The notes under the pieces: generated by a model
Databases searched by the model: none
What the model saw: the letters and a program-made list of their open reading frames with translations, nothing else
Told to the model about the DNA's origin: nothing
Translations under genes and position numbers: made by a program
Shown: piece after piece, positions 7,216-52,664 of the stretch
How the letters are laid out: every line of letters begins with the position of its first letter
How positions within the stretch are numbered: the first letter of the stretch is position 1
IMG/VR virus record: IMGVR_UViG_3300025030_000004
Coordinates: 64,001-128,000 of that record
Source of the DNA: a virus
DNA: 64,000 nucleotides
Reading direction: 5' to 3' (one strand)

Positions 7216-7277
7216 ACTAGCAAGATAGGGGAGAGTACCCTTTGATGATGATTCATGAGGTCATCACTCTTGCTAGT
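7216..7277 (-). ncRNA. Leader element L2 upstream of Rep
   Basis: Stem actagcaaga/tcttgctagt; TCATGA loop (7253-7258); sense loop tactctc complementary to gagagta (plus 7198-7204). Confidence 0.65.
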
Positions 7278-7304
7278 CATATTTGTGTAATATTTCAACA
7301 CAAA

Positions 7305-7333
7305 AAATCTCATTCTTAATAAAGAATGAGATT
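7305..7333 (-). terminator. Intrinsic terminator
   Basis: aatctcattctt-aata-aagaatgagatt stem, U-run on minus strand. Confidence 0.7.
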
Positions 7334-7352
7334 ACTTCTATTGAAATTTAAC

Positions 7353-7590
7353 TTATGCTATTTTATATACTCCTTTAAAATTAACTAATTTATTAATGAC
7401 AGATGTTGATACTTTATACTCCTCTGCCAATTCTTTTTGCATATATTTTCCCGTGCTGAACCTCCGCACGAGCTAAAGCTCGGCAGGTTCTTATGTACTA
7501 GTATATTTTCCCTAATTTCTAATACTTGTTCAGAATTGAATTTTATTTTTGCATCAGATAACTTTTTCCGATATTCTGCTTCAATTCCTA
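7353..7590 (-). pseudogene. Remnant C-terminal HTH of a GIY-YIG-type endonuclease, interrupted by a mini IS end
   Basis: EYRKKLSDAKIKFNSEQVLEIRE / STGKYMQKELAEEYKVS..VNFKGVYK parallels the C-terminus of 31134..31739 (KKFDTNQIAEIRNKYNTG..VVNFKGTYK); frame broken by the insert. Confidence 0.7.
7457..7492 (-). mobile_element. Solo IS200/IS605(tnpB)-type end hairpin
   Basis: aagaacctgccgagCTTTAGctcgtgcggaggTTCA. Confidence 0.6.
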
Positions 7591-7652
7591 TTGAAATATT
7601 ATTTATTATTTACATATCATGAAAGCAAAGTTTCACTCTAAAAGGTTTGTGA

Positions 7653-7979
7653 TTACTTCTTTAATGCATCGTTCTGTACTCCGACCAATTCTTCAACTAT
7701 TTTAACTGCATTTTCGATAATTTCCTGAGTAGGCACAATCCCAGTATCTTTTTTATATTTAGCTACAAAAGTTGTTATGAAATAGCTTAACTTTTCATTG
7801 CCTTGAATTCCCCAAGTCTTATAGTTATCTTCAATATAACTAAATAAATCAACCGATATATCAATATATTTTTTAGAGATTAGATTTTTATTAACCAATA
7901 CTCCGATTAAAATTACTAAAACTATTGCATATAATGTTAATGCAGGGGTGGAGAGGAGAACACTTACTAATAATTCCAT
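7653..7979 (-). CDS. Holin-like protein (LL-H-like)
   Basis: N-terminal TM segment, GIQGNEKL motif, lysis-cassette position. Confidence 0.55.
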   Translation of the reverse strand: MELLVSVLLSTPALTLYAIVLVILIGVLVNKNLISKKYIDISVDLFSYIEDNYKTWGIQGNEKLSYFITTFVAKYKKDTGIVPTQEIIENAVKIVEELVGVQNDALKK

Positions 7980-8012
7980 TTAATTTTCCTTCTTTCATCA
8001 AAATACGTAGCC

Positions 8013-8046
8013 GGATACCCCTAGCTTTAGCTATGGGGTTATTGAC
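8013..8046 (+). mobile_element. Solo IS200/IS605-type end hairpin
   Basis: ggatacccctagCTTTAGctatggggttaTTGAC. Confidence 0.6.
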
Positions 8047-8050
8047 TTTA

Positions 8051-8395
8051 CTAGTATCCTTTCGGTATTTCATTAGTTTGACTAAAATTAGTATCCAGCT
8101 CTGTATTTTGAACAGAATTATCTTCCGCGCTCATAATTTGCGTAAATATATTCTCATTTTCTTGAGTTTGACTTTGAGCATTATAAGAATCCTTTTTAAA
8201 GTAACTCAAACCTTTCCTGAGCACAAGTAAACTACCTACCGCATATGCCAATTCATTAATTAAGGCACTTTCTACAGATTTAAATACCCACATATATAAA
8301 ATTGTGAACACAATAACCAATAATAAAAACGAAAGCAATAACTTTTCCACATCTTTTATATCAAGCCCGTCTTGATCAGACCAAAATCCCTTCAT
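8051..8395 (-). CDS. Two-TM membrane protein (holin-like)
   Basis: Two hydrophobic helices; RBS ggagg; lysis cassette. Confidence 0.55.
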   Translation of the reverse strand: MKGFWSDQDGLDIKDVEKLLLSFLLLVIVFTILYMWVFKSVESALINELAYAVGSLLVLRKGLSYFKKDSYNAQSQTQENENIFTQIMSAEDNSVQNTELDTNFSQTNEIPKGY

Positions 8396-8414
8396 ATTAT
8401 TTACCTCCTCTCGC

Positions 8415-8825
8415 TTAAAAAATAGGAATAGTAACGGTTACACCTTTCATTGCAAAATATCCTAGAATTAATACCCCAATAATTGAACCGCTAATTTTTA
8501 ATATATTAATAATAATATCCTTTTTATTTGTCGATTTGGTTTTAGTAAGCTCAGTTGAATTATTAGAGGTATTGATTACAATTTGTGACATTGTTTGCAT
8601 CATTGAATTAGCTGTTTGCAAATAATTGTTTTCAAAACGTACCAATGTGCCTTTTACATCTTTCATTGAATCTTCCAGATTATTAAGTTTTTCTTCAAAA
8701 CTTGCACTTTTAATTTGCAAATCTATAATTTTTTTATCGTGATCATCAATTTTCTTACCATGATCATCAAGAATTATTTTTACTTCATCTTCAATTCCCA
8801 CTTCTTCCAACACCTCATCTTTCAA
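8415..8825 (-). CDS. XhlA/BhlA-like coiled-coil membrane lysis protein
   Basis: Coiled coil plus C-terminal TM; RBS agggagg favours TTG at 8825 over the 8903 start. Confidence 0.55.
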   Translation of the reverse strand: MKDEVLEEVGIEDEVKIILDDHGKKIDDHDKKIIDLQIKSASFEEKLNNLEDSMKDVKGTLVRFENNYLQTANSMMQTMSQIVINTSNNSTELTKTKSTNKKDIIINILKISGSIIGVLILGYFAMKGVTVTIPIF

Positions 8826-8852
8826 AGATAGCTGCCCTCCCTTTAAAATAAT

Positions 8853-8881
8853 TTGCAAATAATCTGAATCTATGGTATAAT
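8853..8881 (+). promoter_or_regulatory. Antisense sigmaA promoter in the lysis cassette
   Basis: TTGCAA-17 nt-TATAAT with TG extension. Confidence 0.65.
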
Positions 8882-8887
8882 TAATTG

Positions 8888-8960
8888 CCAATACTATAGA
8901 CATGTTCTATAGCCAAAGGCAACAAGGGAAGCAGGGCAATGCAACCCTTGTTATTTTTGA
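8888..8960 (+). ncRNA. Candidate antisense small RNA
   Basis: Follows the promoter; hairpin ctatag-acatgtt-ctatag, then aacaaggg...cccttgtt plus T-run. Confidence 0.45.
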
Positions 8961-8974
8961 CTTTGAACTATCAA

Positions 8975-10471
8975 TTACTTCACCTTACCTATATGCTTGA
9001 GCACAGAAATCAAAGTATCGTATCGATCTACCCCAGTTAAATGTAAGGTAATATTAGAGTTGAATTTTTGTCCTCCTATTTGAATCACTTCTTCATATGT
9101 TTCCAATATATCTTGTGTCATTTCACTTGCATCAATTGCTTTAATTTTAGTAAAGTCAGACAAATACATGGCTGCTCTAGCATCGGGTTCATATAGACTA
9201 AATATTATTTTCCCTTGTTTTTTAGGAACAATTTCCTTTTTAATCAACTCATATATTTGAATGATTTCCTGTCCGTAATTATTCCCCGGAACAGCCCATC
9301 TCCCATTTAAATCCTCCCAATTTGTGGCAACCCCTCTTGCAACTAAATCAAATCTAGGATCAACTTTTGCTAAATTAGATGGTAATGATTGTTTCGAAGC
9401 GTAAGCAAATAAATGTTCTAAATGTGCTAAAACACCTTCATCCTGAGAATTAAAGAATGTTCCACTTGCACCATTTCCTATTGCCCCAATTCCTGCATAA
9501 TTATTTTGATTTGATTTGACATCTCCACCGTAACGCAAATATGAAGTTTCTTTAATCATTTGAGCTACTGCGTAACCCCATTTGATTCCAAGTAATTCAC
9601 CATATTTTTTATAGAATGGAATAATGTTTGGCGCGTTAGGATTTACTTTTTTAATAAATTGATTACATTGTTCAATTGTTACAGTTTCAGTACCTAGAAT
9701 TGGAGTTTTTGGAGTAGATGGGGGCGGAACGCTTCCACCAATCACACCTAAATCAAAAATCTTACCATCTTTAACACATTCTAGAGTTACACTTTTACCT
9801 TTGAGATTTTCATTTGAGTAATTAATGCTTTTTTGTTTTCCAGTGAGGACAATTAATTGGACGTTATTTACTTTGATTCTAAATAATTCATTTTCATAGT
9901 TAGTTGAGAGAGGTGGAGTGGGGGATGGGGGAGAGGGTTGTTGTATTTGTTCGTTCCTTCGTTTGATTTCATTATTAATAGCAACAATTAATTGTTGCCA
10001 AGTTTTACCCATTCTTTGTAAATATCCATAGGGATCTGTGTGATTAACTCCTGCGTATAAAGACCTCAATCCATTATGCGACCACACATTGTCATCAACA
10101 TTCCAACCATGACGAATACAAACATCAGCAACGAGCCAAACGGTTTTATTCCAAACAATATTAAATTGATTTTTATCATTTGTTTCTGCCATCTCTATTC
10201 CTAACCATTCTCGATTCCCCTGCCAACTGCCTGTATGCCATGCTATTTCGTTTTCGGGAACGAATTGATAAATTTCATTTCCAATCCAATCTGCAATAAA
10301 ATGAACTGAAGATTGCCTATCTGCGCTGTTCCAATAATTATAATGATTAAGAGAAGTCGCTCCAATGTTGGCTGTGGAATGAATTGTAATTCCCTTTAAT
10401 TTAACAAATGGTTCTTTAGACCTATTTTTAGATATAAATTGTTGTTTAATATACATTGCATTCATCTCCAA
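8975..10471 (-). CDS. Endolysin: Amidase_2, glucosaminidase and C-terminal cell-wall-binding region
   Basis: ITIHSTA..SVHF..AWH..GIEM..HTDP; AQMIKET..NNYAGIGA..RWA; Pro-rich linkers; GVDRYDT. Confidence 0.9.
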   Translation of the reverse strand: MEMNAMYIKQQFISKNRSKEPFVKLKGITIHSTANIGATSLNHYNYWNSADRQSSVHFIADWIGNEIYQFVPENEIAWHTGSWQGNREWLGIEMAETNDKNQFNIVWNKTVWLVADVCIRHGWNVDDNVWSHNGLRSLYAGVNHTDPYGYLQRMGKTWQQLIVAINNEIKRRNEQIQQPSPPSPTPPLSTNYENELFRIKVNNVQLIVLTGKQKSINYSNENLKGKSVTLECVKDGKIFDLGVIGGSVPPPSTPKTPILGTETVTIEQCNQFIKKVNPNAPNIIPFYKKYGELLGIKWGYAVAQMIKETSYLRYGGDVKSNQNNYAGIGAIGNGASGTFFNSQDEGVLAHLEHLFAYASKQSLPSNLAKVDPRFDLVARGVATNWEDLNGRWAVPGNNYGQEIIQIYELIKKEIVPKKQGKIIFSLYEPDARAAMYLSDFTKIKAIDASEMTQDILETYEEVIQIGGQKFNSNITLHLTGVDRYDTLISVLKHIGKVK

Positions 10472-10573
10472 AAATTATTTATATTTTATGATTTTTAAGC
10501 AAAAGAAAAACACTAGATGATTTTTCCCTAGTGTCTATTTCTTGCGAAATAATTTTAAATTATTATATATTGT

Positions 10574-11563
10574 TTATTGCACAAAACATTTTTTATATGT
10601 ATGATTAACGTGATCATCTGTAACTTGACAATAAATTTGAGTGGTTTTTGGATCGCTATGCCCAAGAATATTTTGGACTGTACTTAAATCACAATTATTA
10701 TTTAGTAAAAGTGTTGCAGTTGTGCTCCGCATGACATGTGGGTGGAACTCTTTGTTTATTCCACAATTGTTTAATATTGTTTTAAATTCTCTTTGAATAC
10801 CACGTTTTGATAATCTTCTATATGGTTTTCTCTCTGTAATAAATAGAGCAGGGTCATTGTCCGTCCTAGAATTTATGTATTTTTTCATTTGAAATATTGC
10901 TTTATATCCAAAATACACATCTCTCTGTTTATCGCCTTTGCCAATTACTCTAATTTTCATATTTTGCCAATCAATATCCGTAAAACGATTAATATTATAA
11001 ATTTCTGATAACCGACACCCCGTAGCATAGAAAACTTCTATCATTGTTTTTTGGCGTGGTGTTTTACAAGACTCTCTGATCTGTTCTAATTCTTCTATTG
11101 TCAAGGCTTTAGGTAATCTCTTTTCTTTCTTTGGATTTTTTATTTTGCTAGTAGGGTCTGACAGAATTATTTCCTCATTCTTTAACCAACTTAAAAAACT
11201 TTTTAAAACAGATATTCGCCTAGACAATGAACTAGTTTTTAATTTATCCCACTTACTTAAATACATTCTAATATCATTAGTACTAATATCTTCGACTCTT
11301 TTCTGGACATGTTTTGCAAATATTGACAATTCTAATTTATAACTTTTTAATGTTAACTCACTTAACCCCTCTAATTTCTTACCTGATAAAAATAACTTAA
11401 TTTTTTCTTGTAAGTCCATACATTCATTCCTATATGGGGATATTATAGAGATATTATATTTGGTTAATATAGTATTTAGATTATGTAATTGGGACTCTGT
11501 ATTTATTAATGGAAAGTTCTCCATTATTTCTTGTTGTAATAGTTCATTGTAAATGTTTGGCAT
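10574..11563 (-). CDS. Tyrosine recombinase (XerC/D-like) next to the tail-fibre cassette
   Basis: ATGCRLSE, GKGDKQR, HPHVMRST, LGH..TTQIY; RBS aaagga favours ATG at 11563. Confidence 0.9.
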   Translation of the reverse strand: MPNIYNELLQQEIMENFPLINTESQLHNLNTILTKYNISIISPYRNECMDLQEKIKLFLSGKKLEGLSELTLKSYKLELSIFAKHVQKRVEDISTNDIRMYLSKWDKLKTSSLSRRISVLKSFLSWLKNEEIILSDPTSKIKNPKKEKRLPKALTIEELEQIRESCKTPRQKTMIEVFYATGCRLSEIYNINRFTDIDWQNMKIRVIGKGDKQRDVYFGYKAIFQMKKYINSRTDNDPALFITERKPYRRLSKRGIQREFKTILNNCGINKEFHPHVMRSTTATLLLNNNCDLSTVQNILGHSDPKTTQIYCQVTDDHVNHTYKKCFVQ

Positions 11564-11587
11564 AGCACTGTCTCCTTTCTCATAAAA

Positions 11588-11616
11588 AGTATACCATACT
11601 ATGCCATCAATTACAA
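11588..11616 (-). promoter_or_regulatory. sigmaA promoter of the recombinase
   Basis: TTGTAA-17 nt-TATACT with TG extension on minus strand. Confidence 0.6.
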
Positions 11617-11656
11617 ACAAACTAAAAATAATTAATTATCACTTAGTGAACTACAT

Positions 11657-11674
11657 GCGTCTATTATGCAACAA
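11657..11674 (+). repeat. Putative recombination site B (inverted relative to site A)
   Basis: gcgtctattatgcaacaa, 12/18 identical to the minus-strand site at 13140-13157. Confidence 0.45.
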
Positions 11675-11801
11675 TTGGATTTCCGTTATCATCAAGTCCG
11701 AGCGCCAACAAGTCCTCGTGAACCGCTGCCTGATACTTCGTTGGAATTTGAACAAAAGTTCTTCTCCCGCTTATGATTAACGCAACATATAAATCTACCA
11801 C
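11664..11801 (-). CDS. Small CD1375/XkdX-like tail-associated protein (45 aa, not in ORF track)
   Basis: RBS aggaggg plus GTG; MVDLYVALIISGRRTFVQIPTKYQAAVHEDLLALGLDDNGNPIVA. Confidence 0.7.
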   Translation of the reverse strand: MVDLYVALIISGRRTFVQIPTKYQAAVHEDLLALGLDDNGNPIVA

Positions 11802-11835
11802 ACTAATCCCTCCTGTTAATTTTTTAATTAGCCAA

Positions 11836-11937: not shown

Positions 11938-11938
11938 T

Positions 11939-12211: not shown

Positions 12212-12221
12212 GTCAACCCTC

Positions 12222-13310
12222 CTAGTAGAATTCGATTAGTTGCCATTTAACGTTTAGGTTGCTAGTAGTACCGATTACAAAAGTTAAGGTCGTTCCATTG
12301 GTAATTGTTGCCCTAAGTAATACTTCTGGGAAAGACCCGGCGGTACCTGGTATTGCAGACACAAATAACAAAGATTTTAATGGGTCAACGTTACTAACAG
12401 TTACAGTTCCCGTCAACGCTAATAAGTAGCTACCAGTTTGTAAACTTTTTACATTATAAAATTCAACAACTGTCCAATTAACTGTATGCGTATCTGATGA
12501 CGTACCAGTTTTCCTTGTAATTGTTAGGGTTGTCGAATCTGTTATTACAGCAGCATAACTTGAATCGGCCGCATCTGGAGTCGTGTTACTGGTGAAGCTA
12601 TAATTTATCATTACAACCGCTTTTGTTAAGTCTACGGCTGCAAGAGTTACCACCTGTGTCGCGGTTGCCGCGAACGCAACTGATCCCCTCTGAATGCTTT
12701 TAATGTTACTATACGTTCCTGTTACTGGATTTTTAGGATCTGTCGTGTATGCAGTTTTACCTAAAACGATGTCTGCAGCGGTTGCCGTCCCTGTTAAGGC
12801 TAAAGTACCAGTAATATCACCTGCATCCGTACTCGCTGTTTTACCAGAGAGAAGGTCGGATGCTGTGGCATTTCCACTTGCCCCTTCACCCTGTAATATA
12901 AAATTTGTACCATCGTACCTCAGCGTATAAATCCCTGCGGCTTTTAGATTCGTCGCATCAGTTCCATTTGCTTTTTTAATGCCCTTTGCGCCTTTGCCAT
13001 TCCAATTTAATGTGCTTGCCCCTGTGCTATCTAAGTTGAATTTAACACTTACTGCCATTCCTGTCGTGAGTGCTGCTATCGTTGGCGTTGCTATTGCGTA
13101 AGTGTTAGCTGCGCCAGTGGTTACCCCAGCGTAGGGTACTTGTAGCGTATAATCCGCCTTTTCTACATTAAAGTTTGTTACTATTTCTTGTAAAGCACCT
13201 TCAACATCTGTGGCAGTAATTATATTTCCTGCATCTTGAATACTTACTTTATTGGCATCAGTACCGACAACTTCCCAAACAGTACCGTTCCAATACTTTT
13301 GTTTTGCCAT
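12222..13310 (-). CDS. Tail fibre / receptor-binding protein
   Basis: Thr/Ala/Gly-rich; YDGTNFILQG, GNATASDLLSGKTA, IKSIQRG motifs. Confidence 0.75.
   Translation of the reverse strand: MAKQKYWNGTVWEVVGTDANKVSIQDAGNIITATDVEGALQEIVTNFNVEKADYTLQVPYAGVTTGAANTYAIATPTIAALTTGMAVSVKFNLDSTGASTLNWNGKGAKGIKKANGTDATNLKAAGIYTLRYDGTNFILQGEGASGNATASDLLSGKTASTDAGDITGTLALTGTATAADIVLGKTAYTTDPKNPVTGTYSNIKSIQRGSVAFAATATQVVTLAAVDLTKAVVMINYSFTSNTTPDAADSSYAAVITDSTTLTITRKTGTSSDTHTVNWTVVEFYNVKSLQTGSYLLALTGTVTVSNVDPLKSLLFVSAIPGTAGSFPEVLLRATITNGTTLTFVIGTTSNLNVKWQLIEFY
13140..13157 (-). repeat. Putative recombination site A inside the tail-fibre gene
   Basis: gcggattatacgctacaa (codons ADYTLQ) at the point where GC content visibly rises. 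Confidence 0.45.
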
Positions 13311-14104
13311 TAGCTCGCCTCCCTAAATAAATCTATGGGAATTTTATATTTAAGAGATTCTGGTATCTCTTTTAATAAATAAAAGTAATATCCACCTGCT
13401 TGATTTAGTTGTTTTTTAAGACATTTACCAATAGTTGAACGATTTACTTTTAAATCACTAGCACAAATTACTTGGTTATTCCAGATACCTATGAATCCAC
13501 CATCTAAATCAAAAACAGCAAACTCCTTTAAAATTGTTCGCTGAATCATCGATTGTAACTTTTCGTCTGTAAATTCATCTTTAAATATTAATACTTTTCT
13601 TTTAACTGAGTTTTTCCCTTTAATCCCTAACAATACATTATTTACTGACGATATACATACCCCAATTTCTTCCGCAAACTTAGTCTGAGAAAAAGCACTC
13701 TTAATGAAATTGCATTCTAAATCAAACACCAGAAACTCTCTGCCTCCATGCATCATGGATAATCCATCTGCATTATCATTGGTTGTTTTATTGAATTGAC
13801 CACCTACAGTCATGTTATATCCATTAACACCATAGCAATTATAATAATCAATCCAATATAATTCTTTCTCATCGAGTTCTTCTTGATTTTCTGCTATATC
13901 AATTATTGCCCATTCAAATGCATCTTCACCATATTTACTAATTGCAAGATGGAAAGCATATTTACTTTCATTATTAGCTTGACTTATATGCTCTTTCTTT
14001 CTTCTATTTAATCCTCTAATTGTTTGCCCTATGTACCGTTTATCATTAACCGTATTTGTTGCACAATAAATAATTCCATATACATTACTTTTATTTACAT
14101 TCAA
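13310..14104 (-). CDS. GIY-YIG homing endonuclease
   Basis: GIIYCATN..RYIGQT..R..EH..E..WI..GYN. Confidence 0.85.
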   Translation of the reverse strand: MNVNKSNVYGIIYCATNTVNDKRYIGQTIRGLNRRKKEHISQANNESKYAFHLAISKYGEDAFEWAIIDIAENQEELDEKELYWIDYYNCYGVNGYNMTVGGQFNKTTNDNADGLSMMHGGREFLVFDLECNFIKSAFSQTKFAEEIGVCISSVNNVLLGIKGKNSVKRKVLIFKDEFTDEKLQSMIQRTILKEFAVFDLDGGFIGIWNNQVICASDLKVNRSTIGKCLKKQLNQAGGYYFYLLKEIPESLKYKIPIDLFREAS

Positions 14105-22161: not shown

Positions 22162-23420
22162 ACTATAACCTCCGCATGGAGACTTAATATATTACCAATT
22201 TGTTGTAAATACAAATAATAACTAGATCCATTTACTGAAACGTTATCTATTTCTATACCATTTTCAAACAAGTGAAATGCACCATTATAATATCTAAGTA
22301 AAATTATATCACTATTACTATTTGACATTTTTAATATTTCACTTGTATCATTTGAACTATTGCTTCCAGTATCAATCCATAATTTATCTGTAGTTGGAGC
22401 TACAATATCTAATATGGGAGTTAATACTCTTGGCACAATGGTTTGATCATCTATCCATAAGTAATTTGTAGCAGGAGTAATATTACCTGCTGATATATTT
22501 AATGACAATTCTGTTGTTTGAGCAGAATTATCAAGCCATATAATAGATGTGTCAGTTAATGGTACATTATAGGACGTGATAGAAGTAGTTTGATTGATTG
22601 TGTATACATTATTATTAACACTTTCTAACCAAAGTTTTAATGTGAAATCATTTTCTATATTAAAATCACTATCAAACCAGACTCTACCATTTGTAGTATC
22701 AATCTTTTCACCATTGATGTATGAAGTATTTTCTGAATTACCGATGATTTGAACAACATTCCATTGTAAATTGATAGCTCCTTGGTCTGATATGTTTGAT
22801 GATTGAAGATCAAGTACGGATTCGGGAACGGTATATTGGATGTTGAATTTTATTTTATTCGTACTTGCCAAAATATCATCCTGTGACTTCACTTGGCACT
22901 CTATATAATAAAAATTATTATTAAAACCAGAAAATTGATATTCTATAATAGAATTAAACGTTTCTGATGTAGTTGTGATAATGGCATTGTTACTGTCATA
23001 CATTATCATTTGCCATGATTTAATTGCTACTGATTCTAATTGGCTATATTGTGCCGTAAAAAGATATTGTGAATTGTAAATAATGTCGTTTTCTATTACG
23101 TTTGTAAAAGAAATTGAGGGAGTGGAAGAACATTTAAAAAGTATCCAATTCGAAGTAGCTGATGCGTCAACTTGATTAAATGTTTGGATCTGATATTTAT
23201 AAATAGTTCCATCAATTAATGTGTTACCAGAAATAACATGAAAAGTATTAAAAGATACTACTACATTTGTATCATAAACTAAAACATTAGTCGTATTGTT
23301 ATATATTTGAATTCTATATTTATATTGTCTATCTCCTGAGTTAATCCAACTTATTGTTATTGGAAAAGTAGCATCTAAACTAATATTATTAGGAGAGATA
23401 CCACTGGGCTTCATAATCAT
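22158..23420 (-). CDS. Tail/baseplate protein with FN3-like domains
   Basis: Beta-rich; immediately after the tape measure block. Confidence 0.5.
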   Translation of the reverse strand: MIMKPSGISPNNISLDATFPITISWINSGDRQYKYRIQIYNNTTNVLVYDTNVVVSFNTFHVISGNTLIDGTIYKYQIQTFNQVDASATSNWILFKCSSTPSISFTNVIENDIIYNSQYLFTAQYSQLESVAIKSWQMIMYDSNNAIITTTSETFNSIIEYQFSGFNNNFYYIECQVKSQDDILASTNKIKFNIQYTVPESVLDLQSSNISDQGAINLQWNVVQIIGNSENTSYINGEKIDTTNGRVWFDSDFNIENDFTLKLWLESVNNNVYTINQTTSITSYNVPLTDTSIIWLDNSAQTTELSLNISAGNITPATNYLWIDDQTIVPRVLTPILDIVAPTTDKLWIDTGSNSSNDTSEILKMSNSNSDIILLRYYNGAFHLFENGIEIDNVSVNGSSYYLYLQQIGNILSLHAEVIV

Positions 23421-24568
23421 TTATATCCCTCCTTAGACAAAATTAAATTCTTATTTAAAAGATAACTTTCTAAAATATTTTCAATCTTATCAAAATCACA
23501 ATACCATATTTCTAAAAAATTATATTTGTTTAATAAAGTATATTCTTTTTTGCGTCTATCATGTTCAACTTGTTTTTCAAAATCTTTTTTTGACTTATGA
23601 AGACCTTTTTTATATTTCTCGTGTTGAACCCCTTGATACTCAATTAATAGACTATGTTCTGGTAAATAAAAATCATAAGAAAGTAATCCACTACCCAATC
23701 CTAATAACCCTTTAAATTCTTTTTGCGGTTCATAACAAATACTATTATTAACCAACCATTCTTTAATTCTCTTTTCGCCTTTTGACTTATTGCATTCTGG
23801 ACAACCACGACCAGAACTTCTGCTTTTTATTGTGGAATCCCATTCGTGTTCACATTCAAAACATTTCCACCAAACTTTTCGTCTATCATATTTAACTACA
23901 TTAAATGGAGTTAAATCTCCGTTTAAACTTGGATGCCATTCTTTTGCTAATTCTGGATTCTTTGTTGCCAAACAATTAGATATCCCAATTTGTCTACTAT
24001 CACATGCTCCACAACCCATTCCTTCTATGATTCTATTCCAAGTAGCTTTAAAAGTCTCTCCACATTTAGGTTTTAAACACCTCCATTCTAATTTTTTCAT
24101 AGAAGTTTCATATTTATCACTAATTAACTCAAATGGTTTACTATTCAATTCACACCAGAGTTTGATATTTTGAATTGAAAAATCATTTGATGGATATGCT
24201 ATTGGAAAACTTCCATGTTTTCGATTGTCACTCAACATTGTCCAACTCATTGAAAATAAATACCCAAGTTTATCTTTTAAAACTAACCTTGAACAACTAT
24301 TTGTATATACATTTGACAATAATTCTAAATTTATATTATTTACTATTAGATAAAGATTAATGTTTTGTATTGTATATGGATTCGAACAATGAATATATGA
24401 AGGTGGATATCCTTGATTTAAACTATCTAAACTCACTTTATAATAATACCCTATTTTATCTGATATGGTTATTGGTGTTCTTATATTATTATATTTAGTA
24501 TCAATTAAATTATATCCTAAGTCTTCAATAATCTCTTTAACTTCTTCATATTTATATTTTTTACCCAT
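23417..24568 (-). CDS. Zn-ribbon plus PD-(D/E)XK (Vsr-like) homing-endonuclease-like protein
   Basis: NCLATKNPELAKEWHP..VWWKC..GCPEC..SKGE..LSYDFYLP..IEYQGVQH; RBS aaggagg gives start MGKKY at 24568. Confidence 0.75.
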   Translation of the reverse strand: MGKKYKYEEVKEIIEDLGYNLIDTKYNNIRTPITISDKIGYYYKVSLDSLNQGYPPSYIHCSNPYTIQNINLYLIVNNINLELLSNVYTNSCSRLVLKDKLGYLFSMSWTMLSDNRKHGSFPIAYPSNDFSIQNIKLWCELNSKPFELISDKYETSMKKLEWRCLKPKCGETFKATWNRIIEGMGCGACDSRQIGISNCLATKNPELAKEWHPSLNGDLTPFNVVKYDRRKVWWKCFECEHEWDSTIKSRSSGRGCPECNKSKGEKRIKEWLVNNSICYEPQKEFKGLLGLGSGLLSYDFYLPEHSLLIEYQGVQHEKYKKGLHKSKKDFEKQVEHDRRKKEYTLLNKYNFLEIWYCDFDKIENILESYLLNKNLILSKEGYK

Positions 24569-24615
24569 TTTATCCTCCTTTATAATATCCTCATAAAAAA
24601 TAAACAAAACAAAAA

Positions 24616-24671
24616 GCAGGGAAGAGGAGGATTCTCTTATCGGTGAGTTAATTACTCTCACCTATCCCTAC
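24616..24671 (-). ncRNA. Leader element L3
   Basis: Stem gtaggga/ttccctgc plus U-run; ggtgag-TAATTA loop-ctcacc; sense segment atcctcct complementary to the RBS aggaggat (24572-24579) and to gaggat (24587-24592). Confidence 0.65.
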
Positions 24672-30984: not shown

Positions 30985-31036
30985 CCACAACCATCTCGCT
31001 TTCTATTATTTATTTACTCGCCTTAAAATATTAAAA

Positions 31037-31100
31037 ACTAGCAAGAAGATGTGCGAGTTACATCTAATAACAGATGATCAGTCTGCTGTCTCTTGCTAGT
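31037..31100 (-). ncRNA. Leader element L4
   Basis: Stem actagcaaga/tcttgctagt (same as L2); TGATCA loop (31075-31080); agatgt-aactcgc-acatct with loop complementary to gcgagt (31016-31021) and gcgag (30995-30999). Confidence 0.7.
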
Positions 31101-31133: not shown

Positions 31134-31739
31134 TTATTTATATGTTCCCTTGAAATTCACAACGTTCCAAATGGTTACTTGTGAAACCAAATATTTTTCT
31201 GATAATTGTGTTAGAGTAACTATCCCTGTATTGTATTTATTCCTAATTTCTGCTATTTGATTGGTGTCGAATTTTTTCTTTGCTATACTAATATTTTCTT
31301 TGTGTTCTATACTATGTAGTTTGCCTTTCTGTGCATTGCTCATATTTACTCTAACATTTTCTGATCGAGGTCCAGTCATTTTAAGCCTAGTTTCATCAGA
31401 TAAATGTATTCCAGATGTGGTTCCTCCACCAAAACAGATATTATAATAATTATTATCGTTAACCGCATTATGTAAATTAATTAATTCTATTTCTAGATCA
31501 TTTAACTCTTCCTTTGAATAAGCTATTGCAATTATTTCTCTATAAAAGTTTTCTTTCCCGTATTTATTTACTGCTCGTTTTAATAATTTCCCACTGCCAA
31601 TATATTTCTTCCATCGTTCCCTAAACATTTTTTGTCCAATGTATTTCTTTCCATTAATCATATTTGTTGTAATATAAATAAAACCATATGGATCTAAAAT
31701 TTTTACCTCATCAACTTTTTTTACCCTAACATTTTCCAT
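31134..31739 (-). CDS. GIY-YIG endonuclease with NUMOD3 and HTH
   Basis: GFIYITTN..KYIGQK..YIGSG..YYNI; HLSDETRLKM, HSIEHKENIS. Confidence 0.85.
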   Translation of the reverse strand: MENVRVKKVDEVKILDPYGFIYITTNMINGKKYIGQKMFRERWKKYIGSGKLLKRAVNKYGKENFYREIIAIAYSKEELNDLEIELINLHNAVNDNNYYNICFGGGTTSGIHLSDETRLKMTGPRSENVRVNMSNAQKGKLHSIEHKENISIAKKKFDTNQIAEIRNKYNTGIVTLTQLSEKYLVSQVTIWNVVNFKGTYK

Positions 31740-31789
31740 TATAAAATCATCTCTCTTTCTTATTAGCTCTCATTTTTGGGCATATAAAA

Positions 31790-31853
31790 TACTAGTAGGA
31801 TAGGGGAGAGCACCCTTTAATGATGGGTAATTAATCCATCACTCCTACTAGTA
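31790..31853 (-). ncRNA. Leader element L5
   Basis: Stem tactagtagga/tcctactagta; tgatgg-TAATTA loop-ccatca; sense segment gctctc complementary to gagagc (31766-31771). Confidence 0.7.
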
Positions 31854-31995
31854 AAACTTTCAATATTAAATTGGATATAAAACTGTGGATGCGACAGGGT
31901 GTGTTTTGCCACCCACCTATAATTCAAACAAAAGAACCCACCTAAAATAGTGGATTCTTTCCCTTAAATATGCTATAATTTACTTGCACATAATT

Positions 31996-38985: not shown

Positions 38986-40005
38986 TTATAAAGCAATAGA
39001 CATCACATCCTCTAAGGACTTCAAATACTCTTCAAGAATCTCCTCAATATTATCAAAATCCCAATACCATATTTCAAGAAAGTTATATCCGTTTAGTAAG
39101 ACATATTCTTTCTTACGTCTGTCGTGTTCAACCTGTCTTTCAAAATCTTTTACTGATTTATGAAAACCTTTAATATACTTTTCATGTTGTTCACCTTGAT
39201 ATTCAATAAGTAGGTTATATTTTTGTAAATAAAAATCGTAAGATAATAAACCTCCACCAAGCCCTGTAAGACTATCAAACGTTTTTTGAGATATGTAAGA
39301 AATACTTTTTAAATCAAAAACTCTTTTACATTCTTTTTCTCCTTTGCTTTTAGAACATTCAGGGCAACCACGACCTAATCCATGTCTGTTTGAGATATCT
39401 GCCTTCCACTCATGATCACATTCTCTACACTTCCACCAAACATTTTTATTACTACCACTTGTAACATCATAAGATGTTAAATCACCATTCTTTGTTGGAT
39501 GCCACTCTTTGGTTAATTCAGGATTTTTAGTTGCTAAACAGTTAGATATACCTACTCTTTCTCCTGCACAATAAGGACAATTATGACCACGATGAATGTG
39601 ATTCCAATTCATAGTAAACGTTTCTTGACATTCCTCTTTTGAACATTTAAATATTAAATCCTTATGTGCATCTATATATTTTTCACTAATTATTTCAAAA
39701 TATTTATTATTTAATTTAAGCCATAATTTAATATTTTGAATAGAGTATGGATTATTTTTATTAACAATATCTGGTTTATGATTTCTAATTAAATTAGTAA
39801 AAATAGTATAATAGTAATAACCATGATTGTCTTTTATAATTAGCTTATCCTTATTGCCATTATAAGTTTCACTTATTAATATATAACCTAAATCTTTAAT
39901 TACTTGTTTGATATAATTATAAGAATGTTTTACATAAAATATTTTACTCTCCTCCTCATTTCTATATTTAGACATAGAAAAAAGAAGGATAGCGGTGTGT
40001 CTCAC
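38986..40005 (-). CDS. Zn-ribbon plus PD-(D/E)XK endonuclease-like protein, paralog of 23417..24568 (true start probably near 39940)
   Basis: Near-identical C-terminal half (NCLATKNPEL.KEWHP..LLSYDFYL..IEYQGEQH..QVEHDRRKKEY). Confidence 0.75.
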   Translation of the reverse strand: MRHTAILLFSMSKYRNEEESKIFYVKHSYNYIKQVIKDLGYILISETYNGNKDKLIIKDNHGYYYYTIFTNLIRNHKPDIVNKNNPYSIQNIKLWLKLNNKYFEIISEKYIDAHKDLIFKCSKEECQETFTMNWNHIHRGHNCPYCAGERVGISNCLATKNPELTKEWHPTKNGDLTSYDVTSGSNKNVWWKCRECDHEWKADISNRHGLGRGCPECSKSKGEKECKRVFDLKSISYISQKTFDSLTGLGGGLLSYDFYLQKYNLLIEYQGEQHEKYIKGFHKSVKDFERQVEHDRRKKEYVLLNGYNFLEIWYWDFDNIEEILEEYLKSLEDVMSIAL

Positions 40006-40022
40006 GACATGACATATCCTCC
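39984..40022 (-). ncRNA. Reduced leader element L6
   Basis: Stem ggaggata/tatccttc plus U-run; tgtc...TCGTGA-gaca hairpin; no clear guide arm. Confidence 0.45.
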
Positions 40023-44559: not shown

Positions 44560-44585
44560 AATTTAATTCACCTACTTTCTAAAAG

Positions 44586-46798: not shown

Positions 46799-46870
46799 GC
46801 AGATAATTCACCTACTTTTTCTAAATATGACATAATAAAATCATTTAGTTTATCCATAACTCCTAGTAGA

Positions 46871-48460
46871 TTATTTTTTCATTTCATTAGATGATGCATC
46901 TCTTGTAATTACTCCTGCGTCTCCTAATTCACCATCTGGTGTCCTTGGCCTTCCATTTTCAACATCTTTGCCACTCATTTGAGATGCTTTAATGATTGGA
47001 GTTAATCCATCTACAAACCCCTTTGCTTTACTCATTTTCATTTGATTTTGGAATTCGAACGGACTCATCCCCAATGAAGCACTAATTTTCTGAGGCAAGA
47101 CTATCCCATAGTCTGCCAATTTTAGAGCGTTATCTAGTCTTTCTTTTCTGCTTGAAGGCATCTCGGTTCCTTCGAATTTCACGGAAAACTTAAATTTGCG
47201 TGTCTTTCTATTTATAAAATAATTCATAAAGTCTTCAAAATATGGATACATAAAAGTAACAACTTGTTCATCAATGGATAGACTGTTACGACTTTCTTCT
47301 GCGTTAGTACGATCTGTAGTATACAACAAACGTGAGTTATTTCCACTACTTGCAACTGCTACTTTATTATATTGATCTAATATATTATTATCAGAACCTT
47401 TAAACTCAAATGATTTAACATCCTCAAAGGGAGCGATAGCAAAATTTATCTCTTTAGCCAATCCTTGTCTAACTAAAGAGGCAAATTTTCCAGCCGTTTC
47501 AGGACTTAATTGCAAAGCATCTTTTACTGAGCCGCCTTTTGTATCTTTGTTAAATCCAATTAAACCAATCAACACTTTACTTGCTTCAATAATATATTTT
47601 GACGTTTGAAGTTTTCTGACTATTGGTCTAATTACCAATTCTGAAAACAACGGCGCGAAGAATGGAACATTTGTAGCCAGTTCAGGGTTGAACTTAAAAC
47701 ACCAGAATCCGTCTGCGGGGCTAGTTTGTCTCCAATAAATATAAGAAGAATTACGATTATTAATCGAGTTATGAGGAATATATTTATTAGTATTATTTTT
47801 TAACATTCCTAAATACTGTTTTTGCATTGACTTAGGATACATTTGTATATCCACTCCGGGTTGAGACAAAAAATAAATGTAATCAAAATCCCATAAAAAC
47901 CCATAGTCCCATCTTCCTGTAATTTTACAATAATCAGCATTTAATTCCTGTAATAAATATTGATCTCCATCTTCACGAAAAACACAAAACATAGTTTCTC
48001 TACGAATAAGTTGGCGTAGAATAGATTTGAATTCTTTTTTATAATTAAATTTTTGCAAGAAATCTTCTAATATTTTTTCGTCTTTTTTATAAGCAGGGGT
48101 TGTGTAATCCTTTTTATCTGCATTTGTACAAGTATATGTTAAATCCCACGAAAGTAAATTTCCCAAAAATTGAATTTGCCGTTTATAAAGCATATCAATC
48201 ATCTCAAAATATTCAGAAAGACCTCTTAATTCTTTTTCATTTTCTTTGGGATTTAATAAAGCTTTATCAATGATATCTTGGGTTCCTGCGATAGGGTTAA
48301 GATTTATATCTCTCATACGAGCATTTACTAGATCTGGAGTATAGATGTTGTTATATATATTTGACATTTGTTTTGCAAAAGATACTACATCCCATGTTTC
48401 TTGTTCTGTAAGAGGGGATGGGGGAGAGGTATCTGTGTTTGAAGTTTTCTTTCTTGTCAT
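46871..48460 (-). CDS. Portal protein (YonE-like)
   Basis: 529 aa directly after terminase; DYCKITG, C-terminal GRP. Confidence 0.75.
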   Translation of the reverse strand: MTRKKTSNTDTSPPSPLTEQETWDVVSFAKQMSNIYNNIYTPDLVNARMRDINLNPIAGTQDIIDKALLNPKENEKELRGLSEYFEMIDMLYKRQIQFLGNLLSWDLTYTCTNADKKDYTTPAYKKDEKILEDFLQKFNYKKEFKSILRQLIRRETMFCVFREDGDQYLLQELNADYCKITGRWDYGFLWDFDYIYFLSQPGVDIQMYPKSMQKQYLGMLKNNTNKYIPHNSINNRNSSYIYWRQTSPADGFWCFKFNPELATNVPFFAPLFSELVIRPIVRKLQTSKYIIEASKVLIGLIGFNKDTKGGSVKDALQLSPETAGKFASLVRQGLAKEINFAIAPFEDVKSFEFKGSDNNILDQYNKVAVASSGNNSRLLYTTDRTNAEESRNSLSIDEQVVTFMYPYFEDFMNYFINRKTRKFKFSVKFEGTEMPSSRKERLDNALKLADYGIVLPQKISASLGMSPFEFQNQMKMSKAKGFVDGLTPIIKASQMSGKDVENGRPRTPDGELGDAGVITRDASSNEMKK

Positions 48461-48493
48461 TGTTTAAAGTTGCCTCCTTTCTTTGTTTTAGGT

Positions 48494-50233
48494 TTAGAGG
48501 AACATTGTATATTGTGAGAGAATATCAAAATCATCCCTTGTTTCGGTAATATTATCTTCAAATGTTTTAATATACCAAGCACAATATGAAACGCTAGAAT
48601 ATCTGTCTTTATTGATTTTTCTAACCACTCTCTTAACCTTAAGTCTCCCATTATTAATATGTTCCAGTTGTAAGTTGACAATTTCCTCAATTAAAAAATC
48701 AGTTTGGACAAAGGGTACTATATTTGTCAAATAATCATTTTTATCATTCAAATCGTAGTCTATGTCTTTTTTTTTCTCAAGCAAACGTAACTTACCACTG
48801 TCAACAATATCAATAAAATTAACAATTACTTCTGTATTATTTGATTGCGCTTTTAGATCATATAAGCAATTTTCAAAAACTTCTTCATCAGGATTCGCAT
48901 CAGTGTTTATTGTATTCCAACATCCTAATACTTCGCCATCAGCAGGATTAACTTGTGATTTCATTAATTCATCAATTATCCCCGATCCGAGACCATTACC
49001 GTCTGCAACGACCATTTTTGCATTATATTGTTTCTTTATTAATTTTACTTTAATAGCTTGAGCACTAAAACTTAAAGCATTAGAAATATTAATAAGATTT
49101 ACTAGGTTCATACTTTTTACTTTTCCATTAGCAAGTCGTTCTACTTCAATAACTGCTACTGATGTTTGGTTATTTGAAGTATCTTGACTACGAGCTACAT
49201 CTACTCCTAAAAAATAGCTACATTTATCGTTTGGAATAAAAACAGGTGATGTTAAATTTCGTATTTTTAATAAGTTATTTACATCTACCAAACAATTTTC
49301 AACTGACCCAACCCAATGACTCATATAGTTCATTGCGAACGCTATTGGTGAAGTATTCTTTTTTTTATTCTGCATTTGTTTTTTTGTAGAACCTCTTCCA
49401 TACCAACATCCCAAATGCCAATCAGAACCTAAAACAATAACTCCTTTAAGTTCTATCATATCATCTACCATTCTTAGACTTCTTTGATATTCGTCACTAC
49501 CTCTAAAACCAGATGTCGTGAAGAAATTTATTTGTTGATTTAATTCTTCCGGATTTGTCATACCAAGTTTTCCAACTGTCATTCGACCAACTTCGACGAT
49601 AGGTTCAAGTGCATCTTCATAAACGACAGAATTCAACAGCGCACTTTCTTCAATATTCACTCTATTTCGACGTTGACCTTTACTTGTTTGAGCATTTGCA
49701 AGGATATCTATTCTGCTATTATTTACAAAAGTTATTTCTGCATCATTTTTTGAAAACTTTTTATCATAAATTTCATTATGAAACCAAGGATAATATTTCA
49801 CTATTTCAAGATATTTATCTTTTAATAATTCTGCTGCATTTTCTTTTGTTTGAGCCGTTAGTGATAAATTTATTGACGGAAAGAGAATAGAAATTACAAA
49901 CATTGCTAAAACTTCATTAAATGTTTTTCCAAATCCTCTAGGGAATACCCCATAAAAACTCATAAACCTAACAGTTGCCCTAAGAAAGGTTCTTTGGTCT
50001 GGATGTAGATTGATTCCTCCTGTTTTAGGTTTTAATAAATCTAAAAGGAGATCGGGGTAAAACCTAGCCCATGAAAGAAATTCAATATATTTATTTAAAT
50101 TTTCATTAAATGCGTCCGATTCTTTTTTCCCTTTTGAATCTACAGTACTATTAAATTCTGGATTATAATTTGTTCTACTTTCTTTTTGAGTATATTTTGC
50201 GTTATCGCTTTGAAATTTACCATATGAAGGCAT
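48494..50233 (-). CDS. Terminase large subunit (YonF-like)
   Basis: PRGFGKT, GQRR..NIEE, FFTTSG, LGVDVAR, DGNGLGSG, KDRYS; no intein or intron. Confidence 0.9.
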   Translation of the reverse strand: MPSYGKFQSDNAKYTQKESRTNYNPEFNSTVDSKGKKESDAFNENLNKYIEFLSWARFYPDLLLDLLKPKTGGINLHPDQRTFLRATVRFMSFYGVFPRGFGKTFNEVLAMFVISILFPSINLSLTAQTKENAAELLKDKYLEIVKYYPWFHNEIYDKKFSKNDAEITFVNNSRIDILANAQTSKGQRRNRVNIEESALLNSVVYEDALEPIVEVGRMTVGKLGMTNPEELNQQINFFTTSGFRGSDEYQRSLRMVDDMIELKGVIVLGSDWHLGCWYGRGSTKKQMQNKKKNTSPIAFAMNYMSHWVGSVENCLVDVNNLLKIRNLTSPVFIPNDKCSYFLGVDVARSQDTSNNQTSVAVIEVERLANGKVKSMNLVNLINISNALSFSAQAIKVKLIKKQYNAKMVVADGNGLGSGIIDELMKSQVNPADGEVLGCWNTINTDANPDEEVFENCLYDLKAQSNNTEVIVNFIDIVDSGKLRLLEKKKDIDYDLNDKNDYLTNIVPFVQTDFLIEEIVNLQLEHINNGRLKVKRVVRKINKDRYSSVSYCAWYIKTFEDNITETRDDFDILSQYTMFL

Positions 50234-50245
50234 TAATCATCACCT

Positions 50246-51322
50246 TCAAATCCCTTCATCATCTTCTATTGATATATTACATACTGTTTCCTTTTCATCA
50301 TCGGTAATAAATTTTAATATGTTTTCTCTATTCCCTTCAGTTGGGTCATTTTCGAATATCCCATAAGGATCACCATATTGTTTTATGTAATCTGCTTTTC
50401 TTTCATCATAAAATTTATATATATCCCCATATTCCACAAGAGGCATTCCTTTTAAATGCCTTTCATAATTTACATAGCACCATATATTAAAATCTAAAGC
50501 ATCATTTGGTCTAAATTTAAATCTTGGTAAAATGGGGATTATATCAACTTCTCTTTCGATAGCTTGAGATAATTCACTTATTGTATTTAATCCTTCTGTC
50601 AAATCTGCTTTACTTAATTGACTAGGATTTATTTTTGCGCTTGTTGCAGCATCTTTAGCCATACCAGCCCAATTTTTTGATTCTGCCACATCACCTTTTG
50701 CGGTAGCTATTTCTTCTTTAACTCTATATCTAATATAATTTAATAATGCTTCGGTATGCATAGCTGTCTTTTCAGAATAATTATTTTTAAGCTGATTATA
50801 TTTCTTTTCGAAATAATAATATTCTTCATTTGTATATCCATAATTCCACTTATCAATTATTTCATTAGTTACAACGAATCCATCCATATGTGAATTAGCA
50901 CCTTGTTTGTTTGCAAAATTATTAGCACTATCATAATTTAATTCTTGTTCTATCTCTGGCAACATTTTAGAATCTTTCCATCCTAGTTTACGGTATTGAG
51001 ACATGGCTGTGTTTTTCATATAGACACCCATGACCTCTCCACCTTCTTCAAGTGAAGATTTCCATAAATTATATAAAAATGGTCTATCAAATAATTGTAA
51101 TGTACTTTTAACTTTGTCTAAAACTACATTTCCTTGTTCGTCACTAATCATATCTTTAATGCATTTTTTGCAATATAAAATCCGACCCATTTTATGAATC
51201 GGATTGTAACTAACATAGTATTCAGATTCCTTTTTTAAATCTCCACAATTTTGACATGAATATTCTTTTTGAATTCTTTTTGGTTTTTTAGTTGTATTTT
51301 TAGGTCTCCCTGCCATAAACAC
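50246..51322 (-). CDS. Putative terminase small subunit (YonG-like)
   Basis: N-terminal CQNC..CKKC, FDRPF; precedes terminase large subunit. Confidence 0.55.
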   Translation of the reverse strand: MFMAGRPKNTTKKPKRIQKEYSCQNCGDLKKESEYYVSYNPIHKMGRILYCKKCIKDMISDEQGNVVLDKVKSTLQLFDRPFLYNLWKSSLEEGGEVMGVYMKNTAMSQYRKLGWKDSKMLPEIEQELNYDSANNFANKQGANSHMDGFVVTNEIIDKWNYGYTNEEYYYFEKKYNQLKNNYSEKTAMHTEALLNYIRYRVKEEIATAKGDVAESKNWAGMAKDAATSAKINPSQLSKADLTEGLNTISELSQAIEREVDIIPILPRFKFRPNDALDFNIWCYVNYERHLKGMPLVEYGDIYKFYDERKADYIKQYGDPYGIFENDPTEGNRENILKFITDDEKETVCNISIEDDEGI

Positions 51323-51439
51323 TTCTCCTTAAATTAATAAAAAGAAATTATAATTCAAATAACCTCTTCTAAATCTTTATATTTTCCACTATAATAATTA
51401 TCTAAAAACTCATAAAATTACTCTTCGGTATATGAAATA

Positions 51440-52558
51440 CTAACAATTATTTAATTGATAATATTCATCCCTATAAAACCAAATATATCCTTTAAATTGT
51501 TTATATTTATGCTTGCAACATAACATTATACTGTTGGCATTATACCCTAACTGTCTAGTTACCTCTCTTAAACTTCTAAATTCGTTTATATAATTACCGT
51601 CCATATCACATTGGACAACTTCCCTTTTGTTTTTATTATTATTTCTTAATTTTTCCCTAGTTTCAAAAGAAACCTCTAACCCTAAAGGACTTCCTGCTGT
51701 TGGGCACAAATTATATCCAATATTTCTTTCAAAACAATTTGTATTATCAATCCAATATTGTTCCCTCTCAATGAGTTTACTTTTATCGTCAACCAACTCG
51801 ATTATTTCAAACTTGAAATTATCTTGACCATATTTAATCCACGATCTTTGTAGGTATTCATTTTCATGATTTTGTTTGTTTAATTTACTTATATGTGCTT
51901 TCTTTCTATCTATTAAATCTACCGCACTACCTATATATATTTTACCATTAAATAAATTAGTTATCCTATATATTCCTGACGCATATTCCGTATATTCAAT
52001 TTTTGAAAAAGTATCATCATTTATATCAACAATCAAACATTTCTTGCATGTATTTTTATAACCACTAGGAGTATTATCTTTCCAAAAATTATTGTCATTC
52101 ATTTCAATAAGACAATCGCACTCTTTACATTTTTTAAACATAACTCCATTAATGTTTTTGTAAATACTTGAATTATGAAGATATAGGAGACTCATATTTT
52201 GAGAAATATTCATTCTAAAAGCTTTTCTTCTTATACTGTCCTCACTCCTACTTGGAAGTAATTTTAATAAATCATCAATATATGTATTTTCATAATTCAT
52301 TTTTAAAATTGATTCCTCTTCATTAGACCAAGTTTTGAATGATAATCTTTCTTTATTTTTTTTAATGCCTAAACTACTAGTAATATAAACTACGCTTTTG
52401 TATTTAGATTCTGATCCAAATTTTTCTATTAATTCATTTTTGCTTGATTCAATATAGTTTTTACAAATCCATAGAACATCTTCTAAACTCCAATTGTCTT
52501 TAAAGCGTGTTGACCTAGCATTATGCCAATTAATTACTTCTGTTTTTGTTTTACTCAT
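51440..52558 (-). CDS. GIY-YIG endonuclease with N-terminal Myb-like repeats/Zn finger and NUMOD1
   Basis: SGIYRITN..IYIGSA..HENEYLQRSWIKYG; REVVQCDMDGNYINEF..GYIW. Confidence 0.85.
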   Translation of the reverse strand: MSKTKTEVINWHNARSTRFKDNWSLEDVLWICKNYIESSKNELIEKFGSESKYKSVVYITSSLGIKKNKERLSFKTWSNEEESILKMNYENTYIDDLLKLLPSRSEDSIRRKAFRMNISQNMSLLYLHNSSIYKNINGVMFKKCKECDCLIEMNDNNFWKDNTPSGYKNTCKKCLIVDINDDTFSKIEYTEYASGIYRITNLFNGKIYIGSAVDLIDRKKAHISKLNKQNHENEYLQRSWIKYGQDNFKFEIIELVDDKSKLIEREQYWIDNTNCFERNIGYNLCPTAGSPLGLEVSFETREKLRNNNKNKREVVQCDMDGNYINEFRSLREVTRQLGYNANSIMLCCKHKYKQFKGYIWFYRDEYYQLNNC

Positions 52559-52615
52559 CTCTAATTCCTTCTTTCCGTATATTTTTTATTTCCGTACTAA
52601 TCATTAAAAATAAAT

Positions 52616-52664
52616 AGAAGAGAGGGTACGGAAATGGGTCATGACTCCCAAAAACCTCTCTTCC
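52616..52664 (-). ncRNA. Leader element L7
   Basis: Stem ggaagagagg/cctctcttct; tggg-agTCATGA-ccca; sense segment atttccgtac complementary to gtacggaaat (52588-52597, 10/10) and tacggaaa (52572-52579). Confidence 0.7.

Follow-up and report, generated by a model that had tools for sequence, protein, structure and literature searches.

The stretch analyzed here (the window; 64,000 nucleotides) comprises bases 64001 to 128000 of virus record IMGVR_UViG_3300025030_000004, which is 166,652 bp in length, carries direct terminal repeats and corresponds to a groundwater phage of ~166.7 kb. Its GC content is ~30%, and nearly all genes are located on the minus strand. Among public sequencing runs, the phage DNA was found only in groundwater metagenome runs, which may be its source and none of which was an RNA run, while the search for cultured relatives returned no close phage, the matches being limited to short stretches of GIY-YIG genes. 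Seven leaders, designated L1 to L7, are located in this window, and the present analysis concerns the self-complementary hexamer which most of them are predicted to carry in a hairpin loop. L1, L3, and L6 precede genes for nuclease-type DUF4379 zinc-finger proteins, L5 and L7 precede genes for GIY-YIG endonucleases, L2 precedes the gene for a primase-like protein with a CHC2 zinc finger, and L4 precedes a short open reading frame (ORF) stub.

L2, L3, L4, and L5 are predicted to fold as three-way-junction RNAs of the minus strand, consisting of a closing stem of 6 to 11 bp (P1), a hairpin of 6 to 8 bp whose 7- to 9-letter loop carries the hexamer (P2), and a short hairpin with a 7-letter loop, UACUCUC, UGCUCUC, AACUCGC, or AAUCCUC (P3). 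Each P3 loop has two complementary sites downstream, the second of which is located at or beside the ribosome-binding site (RBS); the Shine-Dalgarno (SD) sequence matched by this loop lies 25 to 45 nt downstream of the junction and outside the fold. L7 is a two-helix variant in which a single-stranded joint, AUUUCCGUAC, takes the place of P3. The leaders and their parts are as follows.

7216..7277, minus strand: L2 leader, a three-way junction 5′ of the primase-like (CHC2 zinc finger) gene 5324-7174
7245-7267, minus strand: L2 P2, loop CC-UCAUGA-A, hexamer at 7253-7258
7198-7204 and 7184-7188, minus strand: targets of the L2 P3 loop UACUCUC, the second adjoining the start codon
24616..24671, minus strand: L3 leader, 5′ of the DUF4379 nuclease-type gene 23417-24568
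24642-24662, minus strand: L3 P2, loop AG-UAAUUA-A, hexamer at 24649-24654
24587-24592 and 24572-24578, minus strand: targets of the L3 P3 loop AAUCCUC, the second being the SD sequence
31037..31100, minus strand: L4 leader, before the short ORF stub
31069-31087, minus strand: L4 P2, loop C-UGAUCA, hexamer at 31075-31080; a rival hairpin overlaps its 3′ arm
31016-31021 and 30995-30999, minus strand: targets of the L4 P3 loop AACUCGC
31791..31852, minus strand: L5 leader, 5′ of the SegE/GIY-YIG gene 31134-31739
31820-31842, minus strand: L5 P2, loop AU-UAAUUA-C, hexamer at 31828-31833
31766-31771 and 31751-31755, minus strand: targets of the L5 P3 loop UGCUCUC
52616..52667, minus strand: L7 leader, two-helix variant (P1 and P2) 5′ of the GIY-YIG/NUMOD1 gene 51440-52558
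52635-52650, minus strand: L7 P2, loop AG-UCAUGA, hexamer at 52639-52644
5162..5232, minus strand: L1 leader, a doubtful case, 5′ of the DUF4379 gene 3626-5128; TAATTA at 5203-5208, P2 in the loop reading at 5193-5215
39984..40022, minus strand: L6 leader, not a palindromic-loop case, 5′ of the DUF4379 gene 38986-39933; closing stem plus UGUC[GUGA]GACA at 39998-40009
40002-40007, minus strand: L6 hexamer TCGTGA, spanning two stem letters and the tetraloop

The original prediction held that all seven leaders present a self-complementary hexamer in a hairpin loop. Each of the seven hexamers is indeed present on the minus strand (that of L1 falling outside the interval of 7253 to 52644 in which they had been placed), and the loop assignment holds for five of the seven leaders, namely L2, L3, L4, L5, and L7, is doubtful for L1, and fails for L6. 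The hexamers of L2, L3, L5, and L7 are located in the apical loop of a predicted hairpin with a mean unpaired probability of 0.84 to 0.98, while that of L4 occupies the 7-nt loop of a 6-bp hairpin, its unpaired probability being reduced to 0.63 by the rival neighboring hairpin. For L1, the fold which places TAATTA in a loop reaches -3.2 kcal/mol versus -24.3 kcal/mol for the best fold (~21 kcal/mol worse), in which TAATTA forms a single-stranded joint beside a 16-bp hairpin with an anti-SD-like CCUU loop. L6, which is without P3, is better folded with the GUGA tetraloop (-11.8 kcal/mol) than in the reading with a 9-nt loop (-9.4 kcal/mol), and the first two letters of its hexamer are predicted to be paired; furthermore, the closest relatives of the L6 gene are preceded by leaders (L202 and L203) which share the two-helix build and carry the nonpalindromic loops AUAGACA and AUAAAAA. 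Because the L6 hairpin had been misread, the argument for RNA which had been drawn from it, i.e., that UCGUGA is self-complementary only through G-U pairs of the sense RNA, falls away. L6, L202, and L203 represent a separate two-helix type, in which a closing stem is followed by a GGAGG...CCUCC-type or short hairpin and a second conserved hairpin (UUCUAUGU.UAAAUAUAGAA) precedes the RBS.

To place these loops among their relatives, DNA upstream of genes encoding relatives of the L5, L2, L3, L7, and L6 products was collected from IMG/VR, together with that of L5-type endonucleases from metagenomes, and scanned with a descriptor blind to the sequence of the P2 loop (its requirements being a P1 of 6 bp or more, a pair of hairpins, and, in the 75 nt downstream, two sites complementary to the P3 loop). 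The two-site criterion was used in place of a looser descriptor, which returned too many false matches; reversed or antisense sequence does not provide a clean null, as true elements retain a fold when reversed and the orientation of two loci is opposite. The scan yielded 39 unique candidates, approximately 8 of which were judged to be chance matches. A palindromic Watson-Crick hexamer is present in 23 of the 30 P2 loops of six or more letters (18 of 25 unique stem-plus-loop combinations), compared to 4.7% of 34,581 control hairpins from the same DNA (6.5 to 7.1% for 9-letter loops), 12.6% of within-loop letter shuffles, and 2 of 39 P3 loops (Fisher p ~4e-25, uncorrected for shared ancestry). 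The tabulation of homolog loops, by which the proposal was to be judged, thus revealed a strong enrichment of palindromes.

Further members were added by eye and, being a biased set, were kept out of the statistics: L012 (UUGCAA), L006 (UCGCGA), L186 (UGUACA), L192 and L205 (UUCGAA), L213 (UCAUGA), and L092 (GUAAUUAC). Nine hexamers are known in all (UAAUUA, UUAUAA, UCAUGA, UGAUCA, UAGCUA, UGUACA, UUCGAA, UUGCAA, and UCGCGA), each conforming to U-NNNN-A, and the loop consensus consists of one to three unpaired letters (often AG), the core U-N1-N2-N2′-N1′-A, and zero or one further letter.

Scans of IMG/VR for exact patterns built from the conserved 3′ parts of the L2 and L5 types returned close relatives only, in addition to two unrelated GC-rich matches (L001 and L101). 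Upstream of a 78%-identical relative of the L2 gene, the leader at L084:503-557 belongs to another subtype (P1 AAGCAGG, P3 loop GAGCCUUA) and again carries UCAUGA in its P2 loop, while no junction leader was seen for an 80%-identical relative of the same primase-like gene (L083). At L066:571-600, the P3 loop CCCAAC matches two AGUUGGG sites, a covarying target which is not SD-like.

When 26 blind-selected sequences were aligned on the hexamer, the outer pair (1/6) was U-A in 20 sequences, pair 2/5 was distributed over AU (12), CG (4), GC (2), and UA (2), and pair 3/4 over AU (19), GC (3), CG (1), and GU (1). The resulting covariation score of 0.425 compares to 0.138 for shuffled alignments, none of 500 shuffles scoring as high, and shifting the partner by one column reduced pairing from 83% to 34 to 52%. 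Individual comparisons follow the same pattern: L198 (UUAUAA) and L214 (UAAUUA) have identical P1 and P2 stems and differ only by the compensated change, a GUG/CAC stem occurs with UCGCGA, UUGCAA, or UCAUGA, and the close relatives L2 and L5, which share their P1 and P2 stems, carry different palindromes (UCAUGA and UAAUUA). The covariation of pairs 2/5 and 3/4 bears out the earlier claim, and the aligned sequences support the view that selection maintains the loop's self-complementarity as its sequence varies.

The layout of the loops points to RNA as the level at which this selection would operate. In 18 of 19 loops (2+6+1, 2+6+0, 1+6+0, or 3+6+1), more unpaired letters precede the hexamer than follow it, and on the sense strand the preceding letters mostly read AG, AA, or AAG. 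Because this layout is strand asymmetric, RNA rather than DNA is indicated, and the preference of the original prediction for RNA over a single DNA operator is upheld by this asymmetry together with the stems and hexamers that coexist in the phage. The P2 apical loop is, on this reasoning, probably kept self-complementary at the RNA level, a single DNA operator being unlikely. The stems also appear to be RNA structures: in the subfamily with an ACTAG P1 (11 sequences), 98.8% of cells are paired and seven pairs are changed on both sides, and G-U pairs within the stems (P2 of L4, P1 of L3 and L6) form in the sense orientation only. In the P2 hairpins of L2 and L5, a UGAUGA resembling a C box was dismissed, as it belongs to the covarying stem.

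A palindrome acting in the DNA, as the site of a dimeric DNA-binding protein, recombinase, or nuclease at the boundary of a nuclease-gene cassette, would agree with the cassette-boundary location of the leaders, with the T....A frame common to all hexamers, and with the fact that palindromes read identically on both strands. One dimeric protein would not suffice, however, because a single genome contains three hexamers and no fewer than six distinct P2 stems; moreover, the purine-rich 5′ flank is confined to the sense strand, the stem G-U pairs and the covarying match between P3 loop and RBS are features of RNA, and TCATGA and TGATCA are about as frequent as expected elsewhere in the window (14 occurrences each in 46 kb versus ~16 by our estimate), so that we consider such a DNA site very unlikely. 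Hardly more credible is an origin without selection, in which the stem palindrome is carried on into the loop when DNA inverted repeats are copied by fold-back or template switching. Such copying is expected to produce compensated double changes in one step, P2 is itself an inverted repeat, and the palindromes of L006 (GUG-UCGCGA-CAC) and L204 (G-UUCGAA-A) are centered on the stem axis. It is disfavored because the hexamer axis lies 0.5 to 1 letter 3′ of the stem axis in nearly all members, the flanks remaining uncorrected, and the low palindrome frequencies of control hairpins and P3 loops cited above likewise stand against it. The possibility that the hexamer serves within a single molecule deserves greater weight while still appearing unlikely: a U/A pair would close the loop, the four central letters would form a structural or protein-recognition element, and palindromy would be incidental to dimerization. 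The invariant first U and last A have the appearance of such a structural element, UAAUUA by itself is too weak for pairing, and members with small loops could hardly pair all of their letters in trans. Yet we are aware of no reason why a four-letter loop in a monomer should be palindromic, two-letter loops closed by A-U pairs are unstable, nine different cores could not be read by one protein, and covariation of pairs 2/5 and 3/4 is a signature of base pairing. Cis pairing of the loop, be it with another copy of the hexamer or with the start codon region of the same message, has been largely refuted and is scarcely credible. While UCAU in the L2 and L7 loops could pair with a start codon AUGA, and AUUAAU is repeated close to the start in L004 and L087, a second copy between -120 and +150 nt is present in only 6 of 23 leaders, all six being TAATTA in AT-rich flanks at scattered distances.

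Intermolecular self-pairing between leader copies with the same hexamer is the reading which best accommodates these sequence patterns, and we hold it with even confidence. A palindrome in single-stranded form gains its symmetry only on forming a duplex, for which reason pairing of one leader copy with another appears the most likely explanation, and since positions 2/5 and 3/4 cannot pair within the six-letter stretch of a single RNA, two-copy pairing would be the simplest. As an extended duplex, two P2 hairpins are predicted to be 5 to 12 kcal/mol more stable than two monomers. The 2+6+1 layout, which recalls the dimerization initiation site of HIV-1, and the GACG loops of L190 and L191 also count in favor of self-pairing. 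Several points weigh against self-pairing. The nearest-neighbor duplex energy of the commonest core, UAAUUA, is -0.4 kcal/mol (compared to -5.0 for UCAUGA and -7.9 for both UCGCGA and the HIV core GUGCAC), so that many members would need Mg2+, cold, a protein, or isomerization to the extended duplex. A few members contain only a 4-nt palindrome (UGCA, GUAC, or GGCC) in loops of 5 to 7 nt, the restriction to U....A cores is unexplained by dimerization alone, the enrichment statistics ignore shared ancestry, and both dimer formation and the role of the dimer are inferred from sequence and predicted folds.

How self-pairing would serve the phage can be suggested only tentatively. Two leader copies would associate through their P2 hexamers, in either a kissing (loop-loop) complex or an extended duplex, and the resulting dimer would offer two identical P3 anti-RBS loops to the two identical sites of the message, the RBS site and the one upstream of it. 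A rising amount of leader RNA would then repress translation of the nuclease gene with increasing strength, and the hexamer carried by a leader would decide which other leaders it can pair with, dividing the leaders into classes. Such a dimer, with two P3 loops for two sites, would account for both odd features of these leaders at once. We nonetheless consider this combination of kissing homodimers, cooperative and dosage-sensing shutoff of nuclease translation, and a hexamer serving as an address code to be a doubtful proposal as a whole.

Two features of the surrounding DNA may bear on expression of the leaders. A U/A-rich box (UUUUAUAU, UUUAUAUA, or UUUUUG...) is present directly 3′ of P1 in most leaders, at 7198-7215, 24593-24615, 31022-31036, and 31772-31790 in the window and likewise in the relatives L092, L123, L125, L198, L214, and L215. 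This box, together with a 10-bp P1, could act as a terminator, or it could act as a T4-late-like promoter for a transcript lacking the junction; to our knowledge, no promoter consensus is available for this phage. A canonical intrinsic terminator (31930-31961, minus strand) is located 3′ of an antirepressor (Bro-N/KilAC) gene and ~78 nt upstream of L5, and because of its proximity, transcription of L5 may depend on read-through or on a promoter of its own. A 300-nt direct repeat with 73% identity (23468-23767 and 39031-39330) corresponds to the paralogous DUF4379 nuclease-type genes behind L3 and L6.

The palindromic-loop regularity is real and strong and is apparently undescribed: no description of such leaders was found in the literature, the unnamed entries of a catalogue of 10,006 csRNAs (PMC10690425) lying outside the comparison, nor did the literature yield a self-pairing loop in an mRNA leader of a phage or bacterium. 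Few functional RNA homodimers occur naturally, and palindromic kissing loops are known in retroviruses, in a plant RNA virus, and in mRNAs of the fly (PMC7357161). With nine cores and dozens of natural variants of a single defined fold, the leaders represent a test bed for mRNA-mRNA pairing and gene dosage in bacteria; they are also relevant to the question of what keeps selfish nuclease genes from harming their phage and could supply orthogonal RNA-RNA pairing modules. If the proposed mechanism is correct, the hexamer code would sort cassettes by cross-regulation, as an RNA counterpart of plasmid incompatibility groups.

The closest parallels to the P2 loop are the palindromic kissing loops of the HIV-1 dimerization initiation site (DIS), the GACG loops of Moloney murine leukemia virus (MoMuLV), the oskar 3′ untranslated region, and an umbravirus genome (PMC7357161, PMC10484742). 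The HIV-1 DIS loop has a 2+6+1 layout and requires its flanking purines (PMC7357161). The leaders resemble it in the apical loop with a six-letter self-complementary core (L2, L3, L4, L5, L7, and 23 of 30 relatives) and in the usual 9-letter loop, where the core is preceded by two unpaired letters, often purines (AG, AA), and followed by one; changes of the core occur through compensated double substitutions, as in DIS-type loops. They differ in being mRNA leaders of a DNA phage rather than parts of an RNA virus genome or a localized mRNA, in cores that are AU-rich and always U....A (GUGCAC or GCGCGC in HIV), and in flanks that are not strictly purine (CC in L2, AU in L5, and C in L4, with AG, AA, or AAG in most relatives). 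Core stability reaches the GC-rich level only for UCGCGA, the dimer is a predicted one, and the loop forms one arm of a three-way junction whose other arm bears the anti-RBS loop. The GACG tetraloop of MoMuLV forms kissing dimers of two base pairs (PMC7357161), and a GACG loop is likewise present at the P2 position in two leaders of DUF4379 genes, at approximately L190:370-382 (GCU[GACG]AGC) and L191:348-362 (GAUC[GACG]GAUC).

With respect to gene context, leader hairpins which sequester the RBS are known for homing endonuclease genes of T-even phages, including I-TevI, I-TevII, I-TevIII, segB, and Aeh1 mobE (PMC2988022). The leaders described here similarly place a structured RNA, complementary to the RBS region and presumably limiting translation, directly 5′ of free-standing endonuclease genes. 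Unlike in the T-even hairpins, the SD sequence is not contained in the stem of a single stable hairpin but is matched by the P3 loop, at two sites, and a separate arm bears the self-complementary loop. A late promoter within the structure, from which a shorter, translatable transcript arises, belongs to the T-even arrangement, and the U/A-rich box after P1 may be its counterpart here. The T4-type arrangement itself, a simple hairpin which pairs ACUCC with the RBS GGAG (ACUCCCUCAGA...UCUGUGUGGAGU), occurs in the window at 54984-55057 and 58906-58979 (minus strand), the former preceding the GIY-YIG gene 54102-55010, while upstream of the GIY-YIG gene 13310-14104 only a terminator-like hairpin is present.

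The C4 antisense RNA of phages P1 and P7 (RF01695), which is cut out by RNase P as a stable trans-acting RNA, directs two loops to two sites (PMC5320573). Like C4, the leaders are three-helix RNAs located upstream of their target on the same strand, with loop pairing to the RBS and an upstream site and with specificity that shifts through compensated substitutions; unlike C4, they have one targeting loop for two identical sites, in addition to the self-complementary loop. No Rfam family reached the gathering threshold over the window, and searches of L2, L4, and L5 at E values up to 10 returned chance matches at the level of snoRNAs and microRNAs only, with no match to the models of C4 (RF01695) or the int-alpA RNA motif (RF02996) in either search. 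By analogy, the leaders appear to work like DIS-type loops, T-even leader hairpins, and C4 RNA while being members of none of these groups.

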